A DNA stretch of 64,000 bases from the NCBI GenBank assembly GCA_016432365.1, contig CP066686.1, positions 128,355-192,354 of the forward strand, in the 5' to 3' direction. Below, piece after piece: positions 36,448 to 54,163 of the stretch (position 1 is its first letter; every line of letters begins with the position of its first letter). Source of the DNA: Candidatus Woesebacteria bacterium (GTDB lineage: Bacteria > Patescibacteriota > Microgenomatia > UBA8517). The position numbers and the translations under genes are program-made. The notes below the pieces were generated by a model. That model searched no databases. It saw nothing but the letters and a program-made list of their open reading frames with translations, and was not told where the DNA came from.

Positions 36448-38268
36448 TTACAGTTTTTCTATATTAAACAAGCTTGACTTAAGTCCTATATATCCTGGTG
36501 CCCTAAGATTGAATGCCTCTTTAAATTTAGTCCCGTTTATCGTTATTGACCCTTTGTTGGTAGAAAAAGTAAGGCTTTGTGTCGATCCGTCATTTCCATA
36601 GACAACTGAAACCCCTGAAACAGAACTGTAACCCCCGATTCCTTGTAATTCTGCCAAGGAATACGGATTGTGTCCATTTCCCAAACAGTCTACGGGCCAT
36701 ATTCTACCAATATCTCCATTTCCATCCAAAACGTATCGAGCATTTAAAATATCTGCCATTTCTTCTGATTTCAGCCATGGATTGTTTCTATTACAGCTTT
36801 TTCCGCTTCGATCTTTATACCAACCTTTGTAGAACCATGGTGATCCGCCCGCAATTTCATAAGCATTATTTGGCCAACCACCCTGGCCATTTGATGTATC
36901 CCATAAATTTGGTGTCGTGTAGCCACCACTAGAATAACTGAAGGTATATCCACCAGCGGTAGAAGCATACCACGAAGAAAAAGGTTTTCCTCCCGTCACA
37001 AGCACCCACCCAGACGTGTCGTTTACGGCGGTCTCCCAATTACCACCTTTGTTTGTGCTTTTATAAACTTGGCAATCCTCACTTGGGCATATTTCGCCAC
37101 CTCTCGCCAAGGCGTACGACCTTGCCGCCACTGCCTGCGCTCTTAAGGCCGCCATTCCACCACTTCCCCCCCACGATTCTGGAATCTCATAAATTCTTTT
37201 TGTATAAGTCTCAATATTTACCGTCTCATCAATCCATCTACCACCCTTAGAGGCACACTGAGAGAAAGACAAGTTGCCTGAGAGGCTACAACCTTTAATA
37301 TGGATGTTTGCTCCTGTTCCGTAACTTTTATTTATTTCTATTCCACCATAATAGGCGTGCAAAATATCTTCTGCTGATTGCCCACTCTTTGCTCTCCCAT
37401 AAGCACCATATTGACTCATGCCTTTTCTGTGCGGTGCACCATATGAAAAAGCGGCAAATGCTGGTCTAAAAGGAGGGTCACAAAAATTACTCGATCCAGG
37501 TTTTCCGGAACAAGGTTCAGCAGAAGCTGGGACATCACCTATCGATGTAGAGAACCCTCCCGCTTTGGCAGCAGCTAATTCATTTTGTTTGGCAGAAAGG
37601 GAACTAAGGTAGCTCTCCACTTTTGCCACCTCCCCCGCCAAAAATTTTTGCTTTTCGGCAACCTGCGCTTGAAGTGAGGATAAATTTGCTTTATTTTTTT
37701 CTAAACTCTGCTTGTCAGTTTTAAGTTTGGATAGATCAGTTCCATACTGCTCCATCGTCTTTCTGTCTTCATCTGCCGCCTTTTGCCGAAAACTAATTTC
37801 TTGGAACGCTTGCGAGGCGCTATCAGAGAAAATAAAAGGGGTGATTGGATCGTACAAACGCATGAAGGTGTAGTGATTTTTGGCTTTTCCTTCAAATATT
37901 TCTTTTGTATAAGCCAAATCTTCCTCCCTTTTATCGATTTGTTTGGCAAGATTCACAAGTTGTTTTCCCAAATTTGAAATTTTGGCATTGAGGTCTGCTA
38001 TCTGTTTGTTTAGGGATGCCAGATCTGCCTTGTTCTTTTCCTGGGCGGGAGAAAGGGCGTTTATTTCTCTTTGAATTTGGGAGATTTGACAATCGTAATC
38101 TGAGGCGGGACACTCCTGAGCCTTGACAAAAGTGAAGGCTGAAAACAAAATTACAAGCACGAATATCGAAACTCGAAACAAATTCCAAATCTTAAATTTT
38201 AAATTTAAAACATTTGGATTTTGATATAGTTTAAAATTTCGGATTTCGAATTTCGAATTTAAAAGCAT
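36448..38268 (-). CDS. SpoIID/LytB-domain protein with N-terminal TM and long coiled coil
   Basis: GMSQYGAYGRAKSGQSAEDILHAYYGGIEI SpoIID/LytB motif; the N-terminus is rich in heptad-like repeats (LASLNKQIADLNAKISNLGKQLVNLAKQI). Confidence 0.6.
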   Translation of the reverse strand: MLLNSKFEIRNFKLYQNPNVLNLKFKIWNLFRVSIFVLVILFSAFTFVKAQECPASDYDCQISQIQREINALSPAQEKNKADLASLNKQIADLNAKISNLGKQLVNLAKQIDKREEDLAYTKEIFEGKAKNHYTFMRLYDPITPFIFSDSASQAFQEISFRQKAADEDRKTMEQYGTDLSKLKTDKQSLEKNKANLSSLQAQVAEKQKFLAGEVAKVESYLSSLSAKQNELAAAKAGGFSTSIGDVPASAEPCSGKPGSSNFCDPPFRPAFAAFSYGAPHRKGMSQYGAYGRAKSGQSAEDILHAYYGGIEINKSYGTGANIHIKGCSLSGNLSFSQCASKGGRWIDETVNIETYTKRIYEIPESWGGSGGMAALRAQAVAARSYALARGGEICPSEDCQVYKSTNKGGNWETAVNDTSGWVLVTGGKPFSSWYASTAGGYTFSYSSGGYTTPNLWDTSNGQGGWPNNAYEIAGGSPWFYKGWYKDRSGKSCNRNNPWLKSEEMADILNARYVLDGNGDIGRIWPVDCLGNGHNPYSLAELQGIGGYSSVSGVSVVYGNDGSTQSLTFSTNKGSITINGTKFKEAFNLRAPGYIGLKSSLFNIEKL

Positions 38269-38311: not shown

Positions 38312-38725
38312 ATGAAAAAGAAATTACTTATGGCTGCATTTGGGATGACGCTACTCCTGCAAACGACTATCTCCACCAAGGTTGTTTTTGCAGACGCTCT
38401 CGGAACCGCCAAATGCGGAGCCGATGAAATTGATACCGCAATCGGATGTCTAAATGTTCTGGGAAGCCAGGAACAATTTTTTGGAAGCCTTCTTAAGTGG
38501 GCCGTGGGGGTAGGTGGTGGAATTGCGTTCCTTTTGATTGTCTATGCCGGATTTATGGTAATGACATCAGCCGGTGACCCGGAGCGCCTTAAGGCAGGGC
38601 AGGAGCTTTTAACCAGCGCTATTTCAGGTTTGATTTTACTCATTTTTTCGATATTTATACTCAAATTCATAGGAGTTGATATACTAGGACTATGTACGTT
38701 TGGTTTTGGAACTTGCAGCCCTTAA
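38312..38725 (+). CDS. pilin-like two-TM protein, paralog 1 (VirB2/TrbC-like candidate)
   Basis: Signal peptide plus TM1-MTSAGDPERLKAGQELLTSAISGLILLIF-TM2; first gene of an 8-gene overlapping array. Confidence 0.55.
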   Translation: MKKKLLMAAFGMTLLLQTTISTKVVFADALGTAKCGADEIDTAIGCLNVLGSQEQFFGSLLKWAVGVGGGIAFLLIVYAGFMVMTSAGDPERLKAGQELLTSAISGLILLIFSIFILKFIGVDILGLCTFGFGTCSP

Positions 38726-38729
38726 ATAT

Positions 38730-39047
38730 ATGCCACTTAACCTTAATGGAGTACAAACTTTAGCCGGAATTCCACTTGAACAATTTGGAATTACGTCCAT
38801 GGGAACTTTAATTTCAAAAATCCTACCTTTTGTCTTTGGTGCTGCCGGAATTGCCCTCCTAATTTATCTTGTTATGGGCGGGTTCCAAATGATGACATCA
38901 CGCGGAGACCCCAAAGCCATGCAAGGGGCACAAGGCAAAATTACCAACGCTCTATTAGGTTTTGTCATTATCGCTGTCGCTTATTTATTTGTTAAGATAA
39001 TCGGACAGGTTTTTGGTATTACGGCATTTTCAGGTATCTTTATCTAA
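38730..39047 (+). CDS. pilin-like two-TM protein, paralog 2
   Basis: …MGGFQMMTSRGDPKAMQGAQGKITNALLGFVIIAVAY…. Confidence 0.55.
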   Translation: MPLNLNGVQTLAGIPLEQFGITSMGTLISKILPFVFGAAGIALLIYLVMGGFQMMTSRGDPKAMQGAQGKITNALLGFVIIAVAYLFVKIIGQVFGITAFSGIFI

Positions 39048-39344
39048 ATGGACATTAATTCTGTATTCAAATCGCCTTTTACGGCCATTACCGACACAGC
39101 TAAGTTGGTAACTTTGTTTTTAAACACCGCGTTTGTCATTTCCGGGCTTATTCTTCTCTTTTTCTTCATCATGGGTGGAATCGGGATGATTTCAAGCGCC
39201 GGACAATCCGATCCCCAAAAAGCCGAACAGGCAAAAAAAACTGTTACTAGCGCCCTAATTGGCTTTATTATTGTATTTGCATCCTATTGGATAGTACAAT
39301 TAGTGGGGAATATCACAAATGTTCCTATTTTACCAAATCAATAA
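39048..39344 (+). CDS. pilin-like two-TM protein, paralog 3
   Basis: …MGGIGMISSAGQSDPQKAEQAKKTVTSALIGFIIVFASY…. Confidence 0.55.
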   Translation: MDINSVFKSPFTAITDTAKLVTLFLNTAFVISGLILLFFFIMGGIGMISSAGQSDPQKAEQAKKTVTSALIGFIIVFASYWIVQLVGNITNVPILPNQ

Positions 39345-39695
39345 ATGACACTTTTATCAGACGCTAACCCTTTTGGATCGATTGCTGCCCCGTCGGCTCT
39401 CTCACAATATGGAACAGACGCAGGTCCTGCAATCGGAGGTCTAATTGAAAGGGTTCTTCAGTTTCTAATTGTCGGTGCCGGAATTTATGCCCTGTTTAAT
39501 TTAGTGCTTGCGGGATACGATTTTATGGCTGCCGGGGACGATGCCAAAAAAGTTGCCGGTGCCTGGGCAAAAATTTACCAGACAATAATTGGTCTTGCCT
39601 TCTCAGCGGGAGCTTTTGTTCTTGCAGCACTATTTGGACAGTTGATATTTGGCAAATGGGACTTTATTCTTAGCCCCTCTATTCCAACACTATGA
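39345..39695 (+). CDS. pilin-like two-TM protein, paralog 4
   Basis: …LAGYDFMAAGDDAKKVAGAWAKIYQTIIGLAFSAGAF…. Confidence 0.5.
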   Translation: MTLLSDANPFGSIAAPSALSQYGTDAGPAIGGLIERVLQFLIVGAGIYALFNLVLAGYDFMAAGDDAKKVAGAWAKIYQTIIGLAFSAGAFVLAALFGQLIFGKWDFILSPSIPTL

Positions 39696-40078
39696 ACAAC
39701 ACTTTAGCGCAAATTAACCTGTTTCCGTCCGGAGGGTTCAAAGGTTTTGGCAAACTAGGCTTAGAGACCGACGCGGCCACAAGTGCCGACAGGGTGTTTA
39801 CAAACTTTATTTCATCCGCGATCGGACTCATTACAATCATTGCCATAATTTGGTTTGTGTTTTTGGTAACTACCGGTTCTTTTGCGTTTATGACCGCTGG
39901 TGGGGATAAACAATCCCTGGAAACTGCAAGGAAAAAGATTATGAACGGCCTTGTTGGTTTAATGGTTTGTATATTCGGAATCTTTGTTGTTAGGTTTATC
40001 GGATATCTTATTGGTATTCCCGACATTTTGAATTTCGTCTCATTATTTTCTTTATTAACCGGCAACAATGTTCCATAA
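39692..40078 (+). CDS. pilin-like two-TM protein, paralog 5
   Basis: …TGSFAFMTAGGDKQSLETARKKIMNGLVGLMVCIFGIF…. Confidence 0.55.
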   Translation: MNNTLAQINLFPSGGFKGFGKLGLETDAATSADRVFTNFISSAIGLITIIAIIWFVFLVTTGSFAFMTAGGDKQSLETARKKIMNGLVGLMVCIFGIFVVRFIGYLIGIPDILNFVSLFSLLTGNNVP

Positions 40079-40445
40079 TTCACAAAACTTACTAGCGGGA
40101 GCTCCTGTAAATGAGGAGATTACAAACCCTGTTTTTGGGCCGGGTTTAAAAGGTGTGTATTCCTCCGGGCCAACCGCATTTCTGTCAACCTTTATCCCCA
40201 ACTTTATTGGTTTGGTATTTGTCATTGGCGTTTTGGTTTTCTTCTTTATGCTTATCTGGGGAGCCGTTCAATGGATTTCCTCCGGTGGTGATAAACAGGG
40301 TCTCGAGGCAGCACGCGGAAGAATTACAAGTGCTGTGATCGGAATTGTTATTCTTTTGGGGGCTTTTGCGGTTATAAATGTTGTAGAGACGTTCTTTGGC
40401 CTAAATATTCTGACTATTGACATTGGTCCCTTGGTAATTCAATAA
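40068..40445 (+). CDS. pilin-like two-TM protein, paralog 6
   Basis: …WGAVQWISSGGDKQGLEAARGRITSAVIGIVILLGAF…. Confidence 0.55.
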   Translation: MFHNSQNLLAGAPVNEEITNPVFGPGLKGVYSSGPTAFLSTFIPNFIGLVFVIGVLVFFFMLIWGAVQWISSGGDKQGLEAARGRITSAVIGIVILLGAFAVINVVETFFGLNILTIDIGPLVIQ

Positions 40446-40453
40446 TATACATA

Positions 40454-40795
40454 ATGACAAATTTATTAGCAGTTACAAGCGATTCGATTAACTTACAACC
40501 ACCCAGCAACACTCAGTTTGCCCAACTTGGGGGCCTTACAATCCCCGGTATCATTTCTGCACTTATCAGGCTCACCGTGGTCGTTGCCGCGATTGTATTC
40601 TTCTTTATTTTGGTGATCGGTGGAATTCGCTGGATCGCATCCGGTGGAGACAAAGCTCAAACAGAAGCAGCCAGGAATCAAATCACAGCGGCTTTGGTCG
40701 GACTTGTCATCGTTTTTGCAGCTTGGGCCATAGTCGCTCTTATCAACACCTTCTTCCATATCGACATCTTCTCCCTTGCAATCCCAACGGTTTAA
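40454..40795 (+). CDS. pilin-like two-TM protein, paralog 7
   Basis: …IGGIRWIASGGDKAQTEAARNQITAALVGLVIVFAAW…. Confidence 0.55.
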   Translation: MTNLLAVTSDSINLQPPSNTQFAQLGGLTIPGIISALIRLTVVVAAIVFFFILVIGGIRWIASGGDKAQTEAARNQITAALVGLVIVFAAWAIVALINTFFHIDIFSLAIPTV

Positions 40796-40839
40796 TCCCG
40801 CTTGCTCAAAGTTATCTACTGGTTTAGAATTGTTATTGT

Positions 40840-41115
40840 ATGAAAATCGCAACGATTGAGGATTTAGGAACTGTTTTTCAAAGTCTTGTTGGGGCGCTTT
40901 TGGGCTTTGCCGGAATTGCCCTCTTTGTGCTTCTTTTAATGGGAGGTTTTAAATATATAACTAGCGGAGGCGACCCCAAAGCCGTAGAGGGTGCGCAAAA
41001 AACACTTACTTACGCAATTGGGGGCTTGATCATAATTTTGATTTCCTATCTTATTCTCGTCTTGATCAAAACCATTACGGGCGTAGATATTACCAATTTC
41101 AAGGTAGTTCAATGA
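40840..41115 (+). CDS. pilin-like two-TM protein, paralog 8
   Basis: …MGGFKYITSGGDPKAVEGAQKTLTYAIGGLIIILISY…. Confidence 0.55.
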   Translation: MKIATIEDLGTVFQSLVGALLGFAGIALFVLLLMGGFKYITSGGDPKAVEGAQKTLTYAIGGLIIILISYLILVLIKTITGVDITNFKVVQ

Positions 41116-43945: not shown

Positions 43946-44302
43946 ATGAATAATCAAAATTATAAAAGCAATTTACAAGACAGGTGTTATAAATTTAGTT
44001 TAGATTTAATTTCCCTACTAGATACACTTCCCAACAAAAGAAGTTCTTGGGCAATTTCTGACCAACTAGTTAGAAGTGGAACGAGTATCGGCGCAAATCT
44101 CGTAGAAGCAACGGCTTCCAGTTCAAGACTGGAGTTTAAAAAGTTCCACGAAATAGCCTTAAAGAGTGCAAACGAATCCAAATACTGGTTGATGCTCTTA
44201 AATGATTCACAAAAAGTTGATACAATTGATTTGTTAAGAGAAGTAACCGAGTTATCAAACATGATAGCTTCTGGTATACTGAAACTTAAAGGTAAAATAT
44301 AA
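43946..44302 (+). CDS. four-helix-bundle protein (23S rRNA intervening-sequence protein family)
   Basis: VRSGTSIGANLVEATASSSRLEFKKFHEIALKSANESKYWLMLL fits the family motif (RS..SI.aNiaEg…F…ia.gS..E…W). Confidence 0.65.
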   Translation: MNNQNYKSNLQDRCYKFSLDLISLLDTLPNKRSSWAISDQLVRSGTSIGANLVEATASSSRLEFKKFHEIALKSANESKYWLMLLNDSQKVDTIDLLREVTELSNMIASGILKLKGKI

Positions 44303-44388: not shown

Positions 44389-46101
44389 ATGAAAAAACTG
44401 CTCTTAATTCTTCTTTCTTCATTCTTAATTATTAATTCTTTATTGTTTCCTTTTGCTGTAAATGCTCAACGCGGGGGACCACCCCCCACTCCAGCGCCCT
44501 CTGCCGCCCCATCAACTGCTCCAACCTGGTACAACCAAAGCTTTAAAGATTGGCAAACAAAAGTTTTTGATACCAAAAACCCAAGCGATATTTTTGGAGA
44601 ACGGTATACTGCAGCTCAGGTGCAATGGGTCATTTACAGTTTGTGGTCTTTCATAATTTATGCACCTTCCCAAGGAAATTCGGAAACCCAGGCCGTCATT
44701 ACTTGTCTCTTTGCTTCCACAGTAGACGTAACCGGATGTATGGACGCTTTTGCCAAAGCTATAGCAGAAAACCCAAGACCTCCTAGCGTTGCGCAAAAAA
44801 CAGATAACGAAAACATTTTTCAACTTGTCTTTGCATCCGACAGACCACTCTCCGGAATCTCTTTCGTAAAAGAGAAGGTTCAGAATTTTAGTCTTGTGCC
44901 CAGTGCACACGCCCAAACCGTCGGCTTCGGTTTTGGTGCTTTGTCCCCAATTCAAGGTGCCTGGAAGGCAATTAGAGACATCTCTTTTGGAATGTTTGTG
45001 CTTGTAGCTATAGTTTTCGCTTTTATGATAATGTTCCGGGTAAAACTTTCCCCACAGACTGTAATTTCTGTACAATCCGCTCTACCCAAAATTATAATCG
45101 CCTTAGTTTTGGTGACATTCTCGTATGCGATTGCCGGATTTTTGGTAGATTTAATGTATGTCGTGATTGGCTTAATTAGCTTTGCTGCCACTAGTATATA
45201 TGCATCAACACTTGGTGTCCCACTCGCAAACCTCGATTCTTCTTTTTATTTCAAACTCATGACCTTGGGCCAGACTTCCGGCATACCTGTAAATTTATCT
45301 GTTTTCGGGCTCTCTGCAGTTTTATGTTTTATTTTTATACTACCATTCATGATTCTTCTGATAATAATCGGGGCAATAATTATGGCGGCCTTTCCTCCAT
45401 CTATACCGGTGGTTTTATTTATACTAGTCGTTGCTATTGTAATAGTCTTTATAGTTTTCATTTGGAACGTTCTTAAAACCGTCTGGGCCCTTGTTAAGGC
45501 GTTTGTAAACATACTTTTGCTTACAATTTTTGCTCCAATTCAAATTGTCGCGGGAGTGCTTATTCCAAGCCTTGGTTTTGGTCAATGGATAAAAAGTTAT
45601 GTTTCAAACTTGGCTGTTTTTGTAGTCACGGGTACGCTGTTTTTATTTTCTATACTGTTTATTGTTTTAGGCATCGTAATAGGATTCCAAGATTTCGGTG
45701 CAGCTACCGCGACCATTATTGCGTTTTTTGTGAGCCCAGTTTTGGGTACTCAGGTATTTAATGCTGCTTTCCCTGTTAGTTACGCTGCTTGGCCGCCACT
45801 TTTGGGCATGGGGTCGAGTGCAGCTGTCGGACTTCTTTTCCTGGGTGTAAGTTTTGTATTATTTACCCTAACACCAAAGGCAACTGAAATAATTCAAGGA
45901 CTAATGAGCGGCAAGCCCTTTGCATACGGAACTGCTGTTGGTGAAGCTATGGCGCCCGTAGGATTAGCTTATGGGCAAACGGCCGGACCAGTCCTTGAAG
46001 CTTACAGGAGAGCCAATCTTGAAGAGATGGTAAGGACACGTCAGAAAGATATAACGGATCTGGTTGGGAAAATTATCCCCAAGAAAGCAGCCGGAAAATA
46101 A
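44389..46101 (+). CDS. polytopic membrane protein (signal peptide + periplasmic domain + ~8 TM), VirB6/TrbL-like candidate
   Basis: Topology only; no sequence-level proof. Confidence 0.45.
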   Translation: MKKLLLILLSSFLIINSLLFPFAVNAQRGGPPPTPAPSAAPSTAPTWYNQSFKDWQTKVFDTKNPSDIFGERYTAAQVQWVIYSLWSFIIYAPSQGNSETQAVITCLFASTVDVTGCMDAFAKAIAENPRPPSVAQKTDNENIFQLVFASDRPLSGISFVKEKVQNFSLVPSAHAQTVGFGFGALSPIQGAWKAIRDISFGMFVLVAIVFAFMIMFRVKLSPQTVISVQSALPKIIIALVLVTFSYAIAGFLVDLMYVVIGLISFAATSIYASTLGVPLANLDSSFYFKLMTLGQTSGIPVNLSVFGLSAVLCFIFILPFMILLIIIGAIIMAAFPPSIPVVLFILVVAIVIVFIVFIWNVLKTVWALVKAFVNILLLTIFAPIQIVAGVLIPSLGFGQWIKSYVSNLAVFVVTGTLFLFSILFIVLGIVIGFQDFGAATATIIAFFVSPVLGTQVFNAAFPVSYAAWPPLLGMGSSAAVGLLFLGVSFVLFTLTPKATEIIQGLMSGKPFAYGTAVGEAMAPVGLAYGQTAGPVLEAYRRANLEEMVRTRQKDITDLVGKIIPKKAAGK

Positions 46102-49858: not shown

Positions 49859-50383
49859 CTACTTTATCTGAAAGGCAAAAAGGATAAAACTCAGAAGAAA
49901 ACCTACAATAAGAAGGTTTTTGGACAAGTTAAATAATTTTCTTTTTGGCAAATAGGAAAATTTTGACAGGTTGTATATTTCAAGGGCGTACTGCTCCACA
50001 GTCTTTTCTTTATCCGCAAGCATCGTTTTTATTGCTTCATAATAATCCTCCTGGAATTTATAACCCGCAATTCCGTGGGTATAAAGTTTACTGTCTTTCT
50101 GTCCCCTTTTATCCAAAAACCCGGGTGGGTTCAGTGCCAAAAGTCCTGTGACGGCGGACAAAGAAGAAAAAAGCGCAAGGACTAAAAGGTAATAGTGAAT
50201 TGTGGGCCCGCCGGATATGTACCCGGTCGCCGAAAATGCAAAAAGTGCAGAACCTAAAATTACAAGGTTATTTACTTGAATATCTATGTGTTCCGTATTG
50301 CCGTTTATTTTGTGAAGAACCTCATTAAGTACAAATACGTCATCTATCTCCTCTTTTAATTCTTTTATTATGTCCTGCGCCAT
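49859..50383 (-). CDS. membrane protein, hypothetical
   Basis: Three to four TM helices. Confidence 0.4.
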   Translation of the reverse strand: MAQDIIKELKEEIDDVFVLNEVLHKINGNTEHIDIQVNNLVILGSALFAFSATGYISGGPTIHYYLLVLALFSSLSAVTGLLALNPPGFLDKRGQKDSKLYTHGIAGYKFQEDYYEAIKTMLADKEKTVEQYALEIYNLSKFSYLPKRKLFNLSKNLLIVGFLLSFILFAFQIK

Positions 50384-50515: not shown

Positions 50516-51580
50516 ATGGAACAACACGCGATACCTCAAAACATAAGTTCGTACCAATTCAGGCTGGTTGGGGACATGACCCTTAAACAATTCTTCCAAC
50601 TTGCAGGAGGACTTTTGGTAGCTCTTATCTTTTATTCGGCCCCACTTGTGGGGATAATTAAATGGCCTTTTGTAATTATCTCCGCAATCTTAGGTGTTGC
50701 TTTGGCGTTCCTCCCTCTTGAAGAACGCCCTCTGGAAAAGTGGATTTTTGCATTTTTTAGGGCAATTTATGCTCCTACGGAGTTCTTTTGGAAAAAAATA
50801 ACCATTCCTCCTAAAATATTCCAGGACGAGCCGGCTGTTCCTGTTGCTACCCCCGGGCCCCAACAGCAAGCCGTCGAACAGTATTTAGCCTCTCCTGGAC
50901 AAAAAACAGAGCCCACCAACAAACTTGAAAATGCAGAAAAAGGGTTTTTTGCAACCTTGATGGGGATTGCTTCCGGCCTTGTTTCCCCGACAAAAACTCC
51001 CGCAGTTGTCCCTGTCCCACAGCAACCTGAGCCTGTAGCTAAAACCGAAATGGCCATCCCCCAAAACATACCGGTTAAAGTTCCTGCTCAGATGCCGCAT
51101 CTTGTTGTAGAAGAAAAGCGTCAGGAACCGGTTTACACCTCCCCTCAAATATCAGCAACGCAAGTAAACCCGAGTATTGTGGGAAATGAGATGGTTTCAA
51201 CAACCGCAGCCATTTTCTCGGTAGACGCGGCTCCCCCCAACCCCCCAACATATCCAAATGTGGTAGTAGGGCAAGTGGTGGATGCTGAAAGAAAAATAAT
51301 AGAAGGAGCCATTATGGAAATAAGAGACTCTTCCGGGCGCCCGGTACGTGCCTTAAGAAGTAACAAGGTGGGGCATTTTATTACCATTACTCCCCTGGAA
51401 AACGGAAAATATCAAATTGTCACTGAAAAAGAAGATCATGAATTTACTCCCGTGTCATTTGAGGCGGTAGGGCAAATCATTCCACCGATTTTGGTTCAGG
51501 GAAGAAGAATTGTTCAAGAAGTAATGCCAACAGCAGCTATTCCAACCCAAACTCAAGCTAACGTTCCTGCAATGCAATAA
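50516..51580 (+). CDS. PrgI/VirB3-like two-TM protein with Pro-rich linker and C-terminal carboxypeptidase-regulatory-like beta domain
   Basis: N-terminus FRLVGDMTLKQFFQLAGGLLVALIFYSAPL…FLPLEERPLEKWIFAFF (two TM, PrgI-like); C-terminus GQVVDAERKIIEGAIMEIRDSSGRPVRALRSNKVGHFIT…GKYQIV. Confidence 0.4.
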   Translation: MEQHAIPQNISSYQFRLVGDMTLKQFFQLAGGLLVALIFYSAPLVGIIKWPFVIISAILGVALAFLPLEERPLEKWIFAFFRAIYAPTEFFWKKITIPPKIFQDEPAVPVATPGPQQQAVEQYLASPGQKTEPTNKLENAEKGFFATLMGIASGLVSPTKTPAVVPVPQQPEPVAKTEMAIPQNIPVKVPAQMPHLVVEEKRQEPVYTSPQISATQVNPSIVGNEMVSTTAAIFSVDAAPPNPPTYPNVVVGQVVDAERKIIEGAIMEIRDSSGRPVRALRSNKVGHFITITPLENGKYQIVTEKEDHEFTPVSFEAVGQIIPPILVQGRRIVQEVMPTAAIPTQTQANVPAMQ

Positions 51581-51582
51581 TC

Positions 51583-52269
51583 ATGATTAATTTACCCAAA
51601 ATTCCATATTTGTCGGTTCCCGATAAGCCTATTTTGTCCACAACTCAGGAACATTTGCCCATAGCCGATGTAACTAACGATGTGGTTATTTACAAAGACG
51701 GCGGCGCCGCACTTGTAATGGAATCGACATCCCTTAACTTCGGACTTTTGAGCGAAAAAGAGCAGGCTGCCGTAATTACCGCCTACGCTGCCATGATTAA
51801 CTCACTTTCTTTTTCGGTACAGATTGTTGTTAGGACTCAAAGAAAAGACATCAGTAGTTACATAAGCTTTCTGGATGAACAGGCTGCCAAAATAACACAC
51901 CCGCTTCTTGCACGTCTTATGCGTGAATACAAAGGGTTTATACTCGACTCGGTTAAAAAGAAGAACGTTTTGGGAAAAAGATTTTTTGTTGTGCTTTACC
52001 TGTCCCCTCTTGAACTGGGGGTTGGTAAATCGATAGCATCCTTAACCAAACGCGGGGTTACACTTCCTTTCCCAAAATCGTATGTTATTAAAAAAGCAAA
52101 GATTACTTTGTATCCAAGACGTGACCACTTGATCCGCCAGGCCGGAAGACTCGGTATAAAGTTCAGGCAATTAACAACCGCGGAACTAATAGACCTATAT
52201 TTTACAGTTTACAATCCCGAAAAACCTGCCGTTAAGAAAGAGCCGGAAGTGATACTAGAGCACAAGTAA
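51583..52269 (+). CDS. VirB4/TraC N-terminal-domain-like protein (split VirB4?)
   Basis: LPIADVTNDVVIYKDGGAALVMESTSLNFGLLSEKEQAAVITAYAAMINSLSFSVQIVV resembles the N-domain of VirB4/TraC-type ATPases; the ATPase gene follows directly. Confidence 0.35.
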   Translation: MINLPKIPYLSVPDKPILSTTQEHLPIADVTNDVVIYKDGGAALVMESTSLNFGLLSEKEQAAVITAYAAMINSLSFSVQIVVRTQRKDISSYISFLDEQAAKITHPLLARLMREYKGFILDSVKKKNVLGKRFFVVLYLSPLELGVGKSIASLTKRGVTLPFPKSYVIKKAKITLYPRRDHLIRQAGRLGIKFRQLTTAELIDLYFTVYNPEKPAVKKEPEVILEHK

Positions 52270-52309
52270 TTAAGAGTTAAGAATTTAAAATTCAGAATTT
52301 TAGAAAAAA

Positions 52310-54163
52310 ATGAATAAAGATCAAACAAACACAAATACGACACCTATAGCACCACCAATACAACCTGCAGTTTCCGGGCAACAACAACCGCCCCAGCAGG
52401 AGCTTAAGCCAAAGTTGGTCAGTCCAAATATTGCAATATCTCAAGGACTTACCGTCTTTGATGCTATTGCACCACAAAATATCGAGGTTGATTTTGATTA
52501 TTTCAAAATAAACGATGTTTATTTTAGAACCATATTCGTGGGTGGCTACCCAAGATTTGTTGCCCCGGGTTGGCTTGAACCTGTGGTTAATTTTGATTCA
52601 AGTTTGGATATTTCTTTTTATGTCTACCCTGTTGACGGAAAATCGGTCCTGGATGACTTGAGAAGAAAGATCGCTGAAATGGAGGCGGAAATTTCTACCG
52701 ACATAGAACGCGGAAGAATCGTAGATCCTTCAACACAGGCCAAACTCGAAGACGCCCGAGCACTACAGGAACAACTTGTAAAAGGAATTGAAAGGTTTTA
52801 CGAATTCAGTTTTTATATAACTATTCCTGCAAGCTCTGTAGAAGAATTAAATCACGTAACCAAACAGATTGAATCCCAACTTGGATCGCTCTTAATTGTA
52901 AGTAAACACGCGCTTCTGGATCAGGAAGCCGGATTTTTATCCACCGCTCCGTTTGGAATGGACAGATTGAATGTTACAAGGAATATGGATACCACCAGTG
53001 TGGCTACAACTTTCCCACTTACCTCATCCGAACTTTCAAGTGATCGTGGAGTTTTGTATGGCATCAATTCTCAAAATGAATCTTTTATCATTTTCGACAG
53101 ATTCTCTCTTCAAAACAGTAATATGGTAATCTTTGCTACCTCCGGAGCCGGAAAGTCATACTTTGTTAAACTTGAAGCCCTTCGCTCTCTTATGACCGGC
53201 ACCGAGGCAATTATTATAGACCCCGAAAGTGAATATAAAACACTGGCTGATGCGGTAGGAGGAGAATATATATCCTTCTCTTTCAACGCTCCCGCCAAAA
53301 TTAATCCGTTTGACTTAGCCCAAATCCGCGAAGAAGGAGAAAACCAATTGGGAATTAAAATTCTTTCGCTTCATTCCCTAATGAAAGTAATTATGGGTGT
53401 TATTACCCCAACACAGGAGGCAATGCTCGACCGCGCACTGATAATGACCTATCGCAACAAAGGAATTACTATGGACCCGGACACACAAGGCAAAGAACCA
53501 CCCCTTATGGAGGATTTGTACAAAACCTTAATCGGAATGGAAGTCCCCGACGCTCTAGACCTTGCAGCCCGCATTGAAAAATTTGTAAGAGGGTCCTTTG
53601 TCGGAATTTTCGATAAACAAACAAATATTAATATCACCAATCCTTTTACAGTTTTCTCGGTTAAAGATTTGCAGGAAACTCTTAGACCAATCGCTATGTT
53701 TATTATTCTTGATTACATTTGGACAAGGGTCAAAAAAGACATCAAGAAACGCATCTTAATCGTAGATGAGGCCTGGCACATGATGAAATACCCTGATACT
53801 GCCCAATTCCTTTGGAGTGTCGTTAAAAGGGCACGTAAATACTATTTAGGCTTAACAACAATTACTCAGGATGTAGAAGACTTTTTGGGACAAGACATCG
53901 GTAAAGCTATTGTTACAAACAGCGCTCTACAGGTTCTTTTGAAACAGTCTCCTGCGGCAATAGATAAAATTGGTGAAGTTTTTTATCTTTCCCAAGGAGA
54001 AAAGAATTTGCTTCTTGCTGCAAATGTGGGAGAGGGAATATTTTTTGCAGGACCTCACCATGCCCCAATTCGTGTTGTGGCTTCAACTGAAGAGGATAAG
54101 TTAATCACAACCAAACCTCTTGAGGTTGCAAAAATAAACCCAAATGCATATGAAGCAAAATAA
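52310..54163 (+). CDS. VirB4/TraC/TrbE-family type IV secretion ATPase
   Basis: Walker A FATSGAGKSYFVK, DPESEY motif, Walker B ILIVDEAWHMM. Confidence 0.8.
   Translation: MNKDQTNTNTTPIAPPIQPAVSGQQQPPQQELKPKLVSPNIAISQGLTVFDAIAPQNIEVDFDYFKINDVYFRTIFVGGYPRFVAPGWLEPVVNFDSSLDISFYVYPVDGKSVLDDLRRKIAEMEAEISTDIERGRIVDPSTQAKLEDARALQEQLVKGIERFYEFSFYITIPASSVEELNHVTKQIESQLGSLLIVSKHALLDQEAGFLSTAPFGMDRLNVTRNMDTTSVATTFPLTSSELSSDRGVLYGINSQNESFIIFDRFSLQNSNMVIFATSGAGKSYFVKLEALRSLMTGTEAIIIDPESEYKTLADAVGGEYISFSFNAPAKINPFDLAQIREEGENQLGIKILSLHSLMKVIMGVITPTQEAMLDRALIMTYRNKGITMDPDTQGKEPPLMEDLYKTLIGMEVPDALDLAARIEKFVRGSFVGIFDKQTNINITNPFTVFSVKDLQETLRPIAMFIILDYIWTRVKKDIKKRILIVDEAWHMMKYPDTAQFLWSVVKRARKYYLGLTTITQDVEDFLGQDIGKAIVTNSALQVLLKQSPAAIDKIGEVFYLSQGEKNLLLAANVGEGIFFAGPHHAPIRVVASTEEDKLITTKPLEVAKINPNAYEAK

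Follow-up and report, generated by a model that had tools for sequence, protein, structure and literature searches.

A conserved division of the VirB4 ATPase and a PrgI protein with a predicted beta-sandwich in the type IV secretion locus of a Woesebacteria chromosome

Patescibacteria possess a chromosomal type IV secretion system (T4SS) whose locus lies near dnaA and dnaN, and their VirB4 ATPases include a Patescibacteria-specific clade related to the monoderm MPF_FATA class (Quinonero-Coronel et al. 2025, Microb Genom, PMC12102498). Among the T4SS components of these bacteria TrsD is found most often; it has remote homology to the N-terminus of VirB4, and 1664 of its 2272 copies are associated with virB4 (PMC12102498). 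TrsD is essential in Southlakia epibionticum (Wang et al. 2023, as cited in PMC12102498), and the secretion machine is essential for the epibiotic lifestyle of Patescibacteria. PrgI/VirB3 homologues and VirB2 arrays have also been described, especially in Microgenomatia (PMC12102498), and a divergent pilin array has been reported for Microgenomatia and Saccharimonadia. That survey states that its dataset contained no VirB3-VirB4 fusion; such fusions are known from, for example, Campylobacter plasmids (as cited in PMC12102498). For R388, the N-terminal domains of VirB4 have been assigned roles in dimerisation, membrane embedding and contacts with VirB3 and VirB8 (2025 review, PMC12857230). Here we analyse three adjacent genes of such a system, located at 50516-54163 of a stretch of 64,000 nucleotides of a Candidatus Woesebacteria bacterium (contig CP066686.1, positions 128,355 to 192,354; hereafter the window). 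They encode a PrgI/VirB3-like protein of 354 residues, a TrsD-like protein of 228 residues and a short VirB4 ATPase of 617 residues.

The window has all the elements of the Patescibacteria-type locus, i.e. VirB4, TrsD, PrgI/VirB3 and an array of VirB2-like pilins near dnaN and dnaA. Its eight pilin genes are the divergent array mentioned above, and the division into TrsD and a short VirB4 is the one already described as the TrsD/virB4 pair of Patescibacteria. Its relatives include the conjugation machines of monoderms. As in the TrsC/TrsD/TrsE (TraC/TraD/TraE) proteins of the staphylococcal plasmids pGO1/pSK41, which belong to an MPF_FATA subclass, a TrsD of about 200 residues and then a short VirB4 come after a small VirB3-like gene. 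Unlike in pGO1/pSK41, the locus is chromosomal and not on a plasmid, its PrgI protein carries an extra domain, and the similarity of its TrsD is remote. The C-terminal ATPase domain aligns with that of VirB4 from T. pseudethanolicus (4AG5), and the TrsD-like and 617-residue proteins together are collinear with single-chain relatives. However, in contrast to full-length VirB4/TraC/TrwK ATPases such as R388 TrwK (PDB 7O43/8RTB), the N-terminal 200 or so residues are encoded separately, and a P/Q-rich remnant of the linker heads the ATPase. Finally, VirB3-VirB4 fusions show that the VirB3 C-terminus and the VirB4 N-terminus work together and face the same side of the membrane. Two natural fusions considered below (loci L003 and L064) show this for the present lineage too, whereas the window has the opposite state, with three separate genes. 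From the evidence presented below we consider it very likely that 50516-54163 encodes the cytoplasmic-membrane energy module of a Patescibacteria chromosomal T4SS, in which VirB3 and a VirB4 of about 800 residues are spread over three co-transcribed genes whose products reassemble. The features are listed in Table 1.

Table 1. Features of the secretion locus in the window (positions counted from its first letter) and regions of the encoded proteins
Feature	Position	Strand	Length or residues	Basis or remark
PrgI/VirB3-like gene	50516..51580	+	354 aa	ORF translation, Pfam PrgI
PrgI module of the PrgI protein			residues 1-100	alignment; nearly invariant
Helical segment of the PrgI protein			residues 100-155	alignment; semi-conserved
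Linker of the PrgI protein				alignment; variable, proline-rich, followed by conserved PHLVVEEK motif
C-terminal domain of the PrgI protein			residues 225-330	alignment; well conserved
Coding part for the predicted beta-sandwich	51248..51520	+	aa ~245-335	AF2, Foldseek
TrsD-like gene	51583..52269	+	228 aa	corresponds to detached VirB4 N-terminal ~200 residues
Spacer between TrsD-like gene and virB4	52270..52309	.	40 nt	AT-rich; read from sequence
Short VirB4 ATPase gene	52310..54163	+	617 aa	NF045971, P-loop_TraG, 4AG5
Head of the 617-aa VirB4			aa 1-~45	low-complexity, P/Q-rich
Middle subdomain of the 617-aa VirB4			aa ~53-235	
P-loop C-terminal domain of the 617-aa VirB4			aa 267-598	Walker A SGAGKS
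Eight VirB2-like T4SS pilin genes, tandem	38312..41115	+		Pfam T4SS_pilin PF18895
Polytopic membrane protein	44389..46101	+	570 aa	homologues upstream in many related loci
Membrane protein	54168..57122	+	984 aa	directly downstream of virB4
dnaN	57737-58864			downstream of T4SS genes
dnaA	59130-60524			downstream of T4SS genes
SpoIID-domain protein	36448-38268	-	606 aa	E=6e-12; adjoins pilin array
"23S rRNA-intervening sequence protein"	43946-44302	+	118 aa	PF05635, E=1e-19
Membrane protein	49859-50383	-	174 aa	divergent from PrgI gene

An earlier reading made from the sequence alone (the sequence-only reading) had placed the three open reading frames (ORFs) exactly where they lie (Table 1), and had noted the 40-nt gap and the different frames of the TrsD-like and virB4 genes, both of which are seen in the sequence. 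It had also remarked that the ATPase is shorter than a typical VirB4. Indeed, the 617-residue protein matches NF045971 (VirB4-like, CD1110 family) with 371.8 bits (E=6.7e-111), above the whole-protein cutoff of 325, and this match covers only positions 182-735 of the 752 of the model, so that about 180 N-terminal positions are missing. The rest of the protein has the expected motor. A Walker A motif is present in the translation, the protein matches Pfam P-loop_TraG (E=2.6e-30), and its C-terminal domain matches PDB 4AG5, the C-terminal domain of VirB4 (E=2.2e-44). In the middle subdomain, residues 106-217 match the end of the actinobacterial SCO6880 model (368-477 of 477, E=2e-4), and this C-terminal-end match suggests that in Streptomyces-type systems VirB4 may be split at a different, more downstream point.

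The missing N-terminal part is encoded by the preceding gene. In NCBIfam, the 228-residue protein matches the N-terminal parts of three VirB4 models, among them Mbov_0397 VirB4 (positions 109-234 of 894, E=5e-6) and NF045971 (positions 27-108 of 752, E=0.03), plus the TrsD/TraD model NF041427 (24 bits, E=2.9e-5, over residues 20-99 only and below the curated cutoff of 200). These matches become stronger with 26 diverse relatives (38-65% identical) that were scanned one by one. All 26 match the N-terminal region of Mbov_0397 VirB4 (VirB4_plasma; best E 4.5e-12) as well as the TrsD model (best E 2.3e-10), 19 of them match CD1110 (best E 5e-7), and some also match TIGR00929 VirB4_CagE and F-type TraC. 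All TrsD-like homologues carry the precomputed Pfam entry PF26593; a Pfam scan of the 228-residue protein itself gave no match, and no paper was found that names this accession.

An exhaustive search with HMMER over 1.84 billion representatives gave 1722 relatives of the 228-residue protein, one of the 150 best being the single-chain VirB4 P0144 (787 residues). The TrsD-like protein aligns over its residues 15-211 with residues 4-199 of P0144 (47% identity), and the ATPase over its residues 53-606 with residues 213-767 of P0144 (68% identity). These collinear alignments argue that the two genes of the window correspond to one protein, with the break in a short linker. A second fused protein, from locus L076 (794 residues), helps to place this break. 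Its first 357 residues align end to end with TraC_F_IV, the Pfam family for the N-terminal domain of F-type VirB4, so that the classical N-terminal domain corresponds to TrsD plus the first 235 or so residues of the 617-residue protein. The split is thus inside this domain and not at its end: the 228-residue protein, a detached N-terminal part of VirB4, represents about the first half, whereas the second half (the middle subdomain of Table 1) has stayed attached to the ATPase. The sequence-only reading had taken the 228-residue ORF for the VirB4 N-domain. The homology holds, and the similarity to VirB4 N-domains whose absence it held to count against the proposal is found in the NCBIfam matches and in the collinearity; the extent has to be corrected, as only the first half of the domain is contained in this ORF.

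Is the division genuine? The genes are adjacent, in the same orientation, in different frames and only 40 nt apart, and fused full-length versions exist in relatives. Together these facts could mean that a full-length virB4 was recently broken by a frameshift or nonsense mutation, or that the assembly or sequence contains an error, and the sequence-only reading had listed a genuine split gene, a frameshift pseudogene and a sequencing error side by side. However, stop codons are found in several frames in or near the spacer (TAA at 52267, TAA at 52286 and TAG at 52301, the latter in the frame of the ATPase), so that no single-base insertion or deletion would merge the two genes into one ORF. 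Moreover, the same arrangement recurs in independent assemblies. In a scan that took a single genome for each species, 554 genomes contained a relative. The 80 best loci were analysed, and every one of them belongs to Microgenomatia (Woesebacteria, Gottesmanbacteria, Amesbacteria, Shapirobacteria, Beckwithbacteria and Daviesbacteria). TrsD and virB4 are separate ORFs in 76 of the 78 species-level loci that show both genes. The commonest junction between them is a 4-nt overlap, which is the usual signature of translational coupling. The 228-residue protein has 1733 homologue clusters, the best 120 of which are all 225-242 residues long and 80-100% identical. Among its 150 closest representatives at 50% identity, 149 have the domain at the very N-terminus and no ATPase (no Walker A in the right context), the domain being followed by P/Q/T/A/S-rich sequence of low complexity.

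Further evidence comes from the rate of change and from more distant systems. Compared with seven relatives, non-synonymous divergence (dN) is 0.11-0.21 for TrsD and 0.08-0.16 for VirB4, while synonymous divergence (dS) is saturated. As this saturation makes dN/dS ratios mostly not computable, the argument uses just the low dN set against the saturated dS, which points to purifying selection on both genes. The same split is present on a Bacillota plasmid. A Pontibacillus plasmid has three genes, encoding a 116-residue PrgI/TraL-like protein, a 274-residue homologue of TrsD and a 621-residue "VirB4-like, CD1110 family" protein, and also in Bacillota plasmids the short VirB4 class is always accompanied by TrsD. 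The two fused forms, for their part, group as sisters within a set of split ones in a neighbour-joining tree (see below). A pseudogene or an error is therefore extremely improbable. The split is genuine, ancient, inherited and maintained by selection, with two functional genes, and of the three options listed by the sequence-only reading the first is retained: the conservation in 76 of 78 loci, the number of clusters, the low dN, the spacer stops and the collinearity with fused VirB4s speak for it and against the other two. A break of another kind is seen in locus L008 (6705-8529; OY970314.1, a complete Woesebacteria chromosome). Here virB4 is in two ORFs of 394 and 218 residues with the break inside the ATPase. 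In contrast to the TrsD/VirB4 split, which is conserved, this has the look of a true frameshift or of an error in sequencing. Similar fragmentation of virB4 is found in L069 and L072.

Natural fusions show how the modules follow each other, and they define domain order and topology without experiment. An Embleya plasmid encodes a PrgI-TrsD-like fusion of 349 residues (PrgI E=1e-17) and a separate ATPase of 643 residues. A Rubrobacter plasmid (L003) has PrgI, a TrsD-like domain and VirB4 in one protein of 1344 residues. Within the Microgenomatia set two Amesbacteria loci are fused, L076 (TrsD-VirB4) and L064 (all modules). The latter, from Candidatus Amesbacteria GW2011_GWA1_47_20 (LCOA01000014.1), has a single ORF of 1584 residues with, in this order, the PrgI hairpin, a CarboxypepD_reg-like domain (E=1e-6, 29.1 bits), the TrsD domain and VirB4. 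That one ORF fuses these four modules argues that they are functionally linked and that the beta-sandwich, described below, is cytoplasmic. Comparison of the junctions of L064 and L076 shows a 31-nt deletion in L064 that removes the stop codon of PrgI and the start codon of TrsD and aligns the frames. In a neighbour-joining tree of the TrsD domain (no bootstrap), L064 and L076 are sisters nested among split loci, an indication only that the TrsD-VirB4 fusion in Amesbacteria may be secondary. In the dataset of PMC12102498 VirB3-VirB4 fusions were absent, and the L064 ORF is a counter-example, albeit from one metagenome-assembled genome.

The VirB4 part of L064 is interrupted directly after the GKS of Walker A by an insertion with matches to Pfam Intein_splicing and LAGLIDADG_3, which identify it as an intein with a homing endonuclease. 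L018 has a large insertion at the same place. Both belong to a group of loci with long virB4 genes of 1086-1232 codons (L018:6656-10171, L064:5239-9993, and also L054, L059, L071 and L072). No intein insertion is present in the virB4 of the window.

The third protein of the module is the product of the PrgI gene. Its residues 6-84 match Pfam PrgI PF12666 (27.6 bits, E=4e-6), narrowly above the gathering score of 27. Two adjacent transmembrane (TM) segments at residues 26-48 and 50-68 and the position of the gene near virB4 fit this family, whereas its 354 residues, a length due to the linker and the extra domain, contrast with a family size of about 100. PF12666 is precomputed for most homologues, and two of them are named PrgI family protein by NCBI. 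The homologues form 2022 clusters, and the best 120 are all full-length (330-384 residues, 57-94% identity). PrgI and the C-terminal domain are in one ORF in 73 of the 80 loci. AlphaFold2 (AF2) predicts residues ~245-335 as an all-beta domain with a predicted local distance difference test (pLDDT) score of 80-92. In the PDB, Foldseek finds for it the transthyretin-like domains of carboxypeptidases N/D, CnaB2, and the SpaA C-domain/pilin C-domains (E 1e-5 to 1e-4, root-mean-square deviation 2.3-2.9 Å, TM-score relative to the small targets up to 0.77). CarboxypepD_reg PF13620 matches residues 250-305 with 17.2 bits (E=0.0067), below its gathering score of 32.3, and is precomputed on some homologues. 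Setting the model-based matches against this score, a transthyretin-like beta-sandwich fold is supported while membership of the Pfam family is not. With the domain alone as query only 30 short gene fragments were returned. The sequence-only reading had described just this succession of a PrgI module, a proline-rich linker and a transthyretin-like domain, which the Pfam match, the alignment profile, AF2 and Foldseek bear out. PMC12102498 mentions neither a C-terminal beta-sandwich on PrgI nor inteins, and as we found no published description of this domain, conserved in Microgenomatia, it is apparently undescribed.

On which side of the membrane is this domain? The folds nearest to it belong to extracellular proteins (CnaB, pilin domains, S-layer, carboxypeptidase D), proline-rich linkers are typical wall-spanning segments, and one of the fragments bears the automatic Joint Genome Institute (JGI) name "surface anchored protein". 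The beta-sandwich could thus be displayed outside the membrane as a wall- or host-binding module, with the linker as a stalk through the wall. However, hydropathy shows only the two TM segments, which form a tight hairpin, and beyond residue 100 no further hydrophobic segment is seen, so that both termini would be on the same side of the membrane. A candidate third TM helix at residues 143-156 was rejected (only 14 hydrophobic residues; the maximal 19-residue hydropathy after residue 90 is 1.06). Moreover, Embleya, Rubrobacter and L064 all have cytoplasmic TrsD or VirB4 modules covalently attached to the C-terminus of PrgI, and in L064 it is the beta-sandwich that is placed between PrgI and TrsD, without a TM segment in between. 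External display is therefore rather unlikely. Given the two-TM hairpin and these fusions, the beta-sandwich is most likely cytoplasmic, which is of interest for a fold that is typical of surface proteins.

We can thus propose how the module may work. The PrgI/VirB3-like hairpin would carry its extra cytoplasmic beta-sandwich on a flexible proline-rich tether, and the three polypeptides would most likely reassemble non-covalently into the equivalent of a VirB3-VirB4 complex. TrsD may form the bridge from membrane anchor to motor, a task that falls to the covalent N-terminal domain in the R388 machine; this role is suggested by the contacts of the R388 VirB4 N-terminal domains with VirB3 and VirB8 (PMC12857230). 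Beside them at the cytoplasmic face, the beta-sandwich could offer an additional docking surface. The three genes are probably co-transcribed. This is deduced from their spacing only, because the promoter/terminator scan of the region, which found no terminator-like site in the spacer (52270-52309), gave overall no other result than shuffled sequence.

Several observations weigh against this proposal. The score of 24 bits against the 200-bit TrsD cutoff suggests that the 228-residue protein is only a distant relative of staphylococcal TrsD, outside the curated NF041427 subfamily. Its AF2 model is poor (pLDDT 48, from a 30-sequence alignment with 80-100% identity), and neither phmmer nor a profile of the 26 sequences found a relevant match among PDB sequences. 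A Foldseek search with this model gave, as the top nine of 350,000 PDB chains, exclusively R388 TrwK/VirB4 (E 0.02-0.16); because the model is poor, this is counted only as weak, concordant evidence. The all-in-one fusion of L064 comes from a single metagenome-assembled genome, and folds like the beta-sandwich are usually extracellular. Finally, the long disordered P/Q/T-rich tails of TrsD proteins in other lineages hint at functions beyond the reconstitution of VirB4.

These tails raise the question whether TrsD, although it would descend from the VirB4 N-terminus, has a separate role as a scaffold, a regulator or a hub that recruits substrates through its disordered tail. Most TrsD-like relatives of other lineages (P0123-P0268) have C-terminal P/Q/T/A/S-rich low-complexity tails of 100 to about 500 residues, and TrsD homologues without association to virB4 have been reported in Gracilibacteria (PMC12102498). 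We consider such a role quite unlikely for the protein of the window, as its tail has only about 17 extra residues, nearly all members of the class keep the gene order and the translational coupling with virB4, and secondary re-fusion to VirB4 is tolerated. The reassembly of PrgI, TrsD and the short VirB4 into one complex is thus preferred. More speculatively, the beta-sandwich of PrgI and the free TrsD could together serve as a docking platform, specific to this lineage, at the foot of the VirB4 motor, and this platform would have taken over substrate recruitment, no relaxase or coupling-protein (T4CP) domain having been found in the window ORFs scanned against Pfam. This is a very unlikely extension of the model; if true, it would give a concrete handle on the cargo of the essential T4SS of Patescibacteria.

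For annotation, the question of the split is settled in favour of two functional genes rather than a pseudogene. The published resemblance of TrsD to the VirB4 N-terminus is based on profiles, to which collinearity and Rosetta-stone evidence are now added. New elements are the placement of the break inside the classical N-terminal domain, the conserved and probably cytoplasmic beta-sandwich of PrgI, and the apparently secondary all-in-one fusion. In modelling or reconstitution of the Patescibacteria machine, PrgI, TrsD and VirB4 should be treated as one assembly, and to models for Microgenomatia the PrgI beta-sandwich, predicted to be cytoplasmic and absent from published surveys, should be added. 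The general picture of type IV secretion is unchanged; the locus is ordinary and its new elements are modest.

PF18895 matches all eight pilin ORFs, six of them above the gathering score (E 1e-6 to 9e-11). The 570-residue protein has no family match in Pfam or NCBIfam, and it may be a candidate for a VirB6-type channel. Homologues of the 984-residue protein, with 25-40% identity, are found downstream of virB4 in most related loci. This protein has a Gly/Ala-rich membrane region and, near its C-terminus, an HEVSH motif (HExxH, metalloprotease-like). It matches no Pfam or NCBIfam family and is a candidate envelope or wall-processing component. On the Pontibacillus plasmid, a peptidoglycan metalloendopeptidase is found in its position. 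An origin of the locus from a mobile element was considered and rejected for the window, as its neighbours are housekeeping genes (dnaA, dnaN, rpoD, dnaG and smpB).

Other genes nearby were noted in passing. The SpoIID-domain protein that adjoins the pilin array could be a partner of the secretion system in remodelling the wall. The PF05635 gene sits between the T4SS-associated genes for a 920-residue protein and the 570-residue protein. The 174-residue membrane protein has a sub-threshold match to PycTM (Pycsar effector transmembrane family; E=5e-5, 24 bits versus a cutoff of 27.2). Finally, many contigs (L014, L017, L019, L025, L043, L048 and others) have titles such as "uncultured Gammaproteobacteria", "Nevskiaceae" or "Bathyarchaeia". 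They carry a Microgenomatia-type PrgI-TrsD-VirB4 locus with 45-67% identity, which suggests that these titles are probably those of mislabelled bins.

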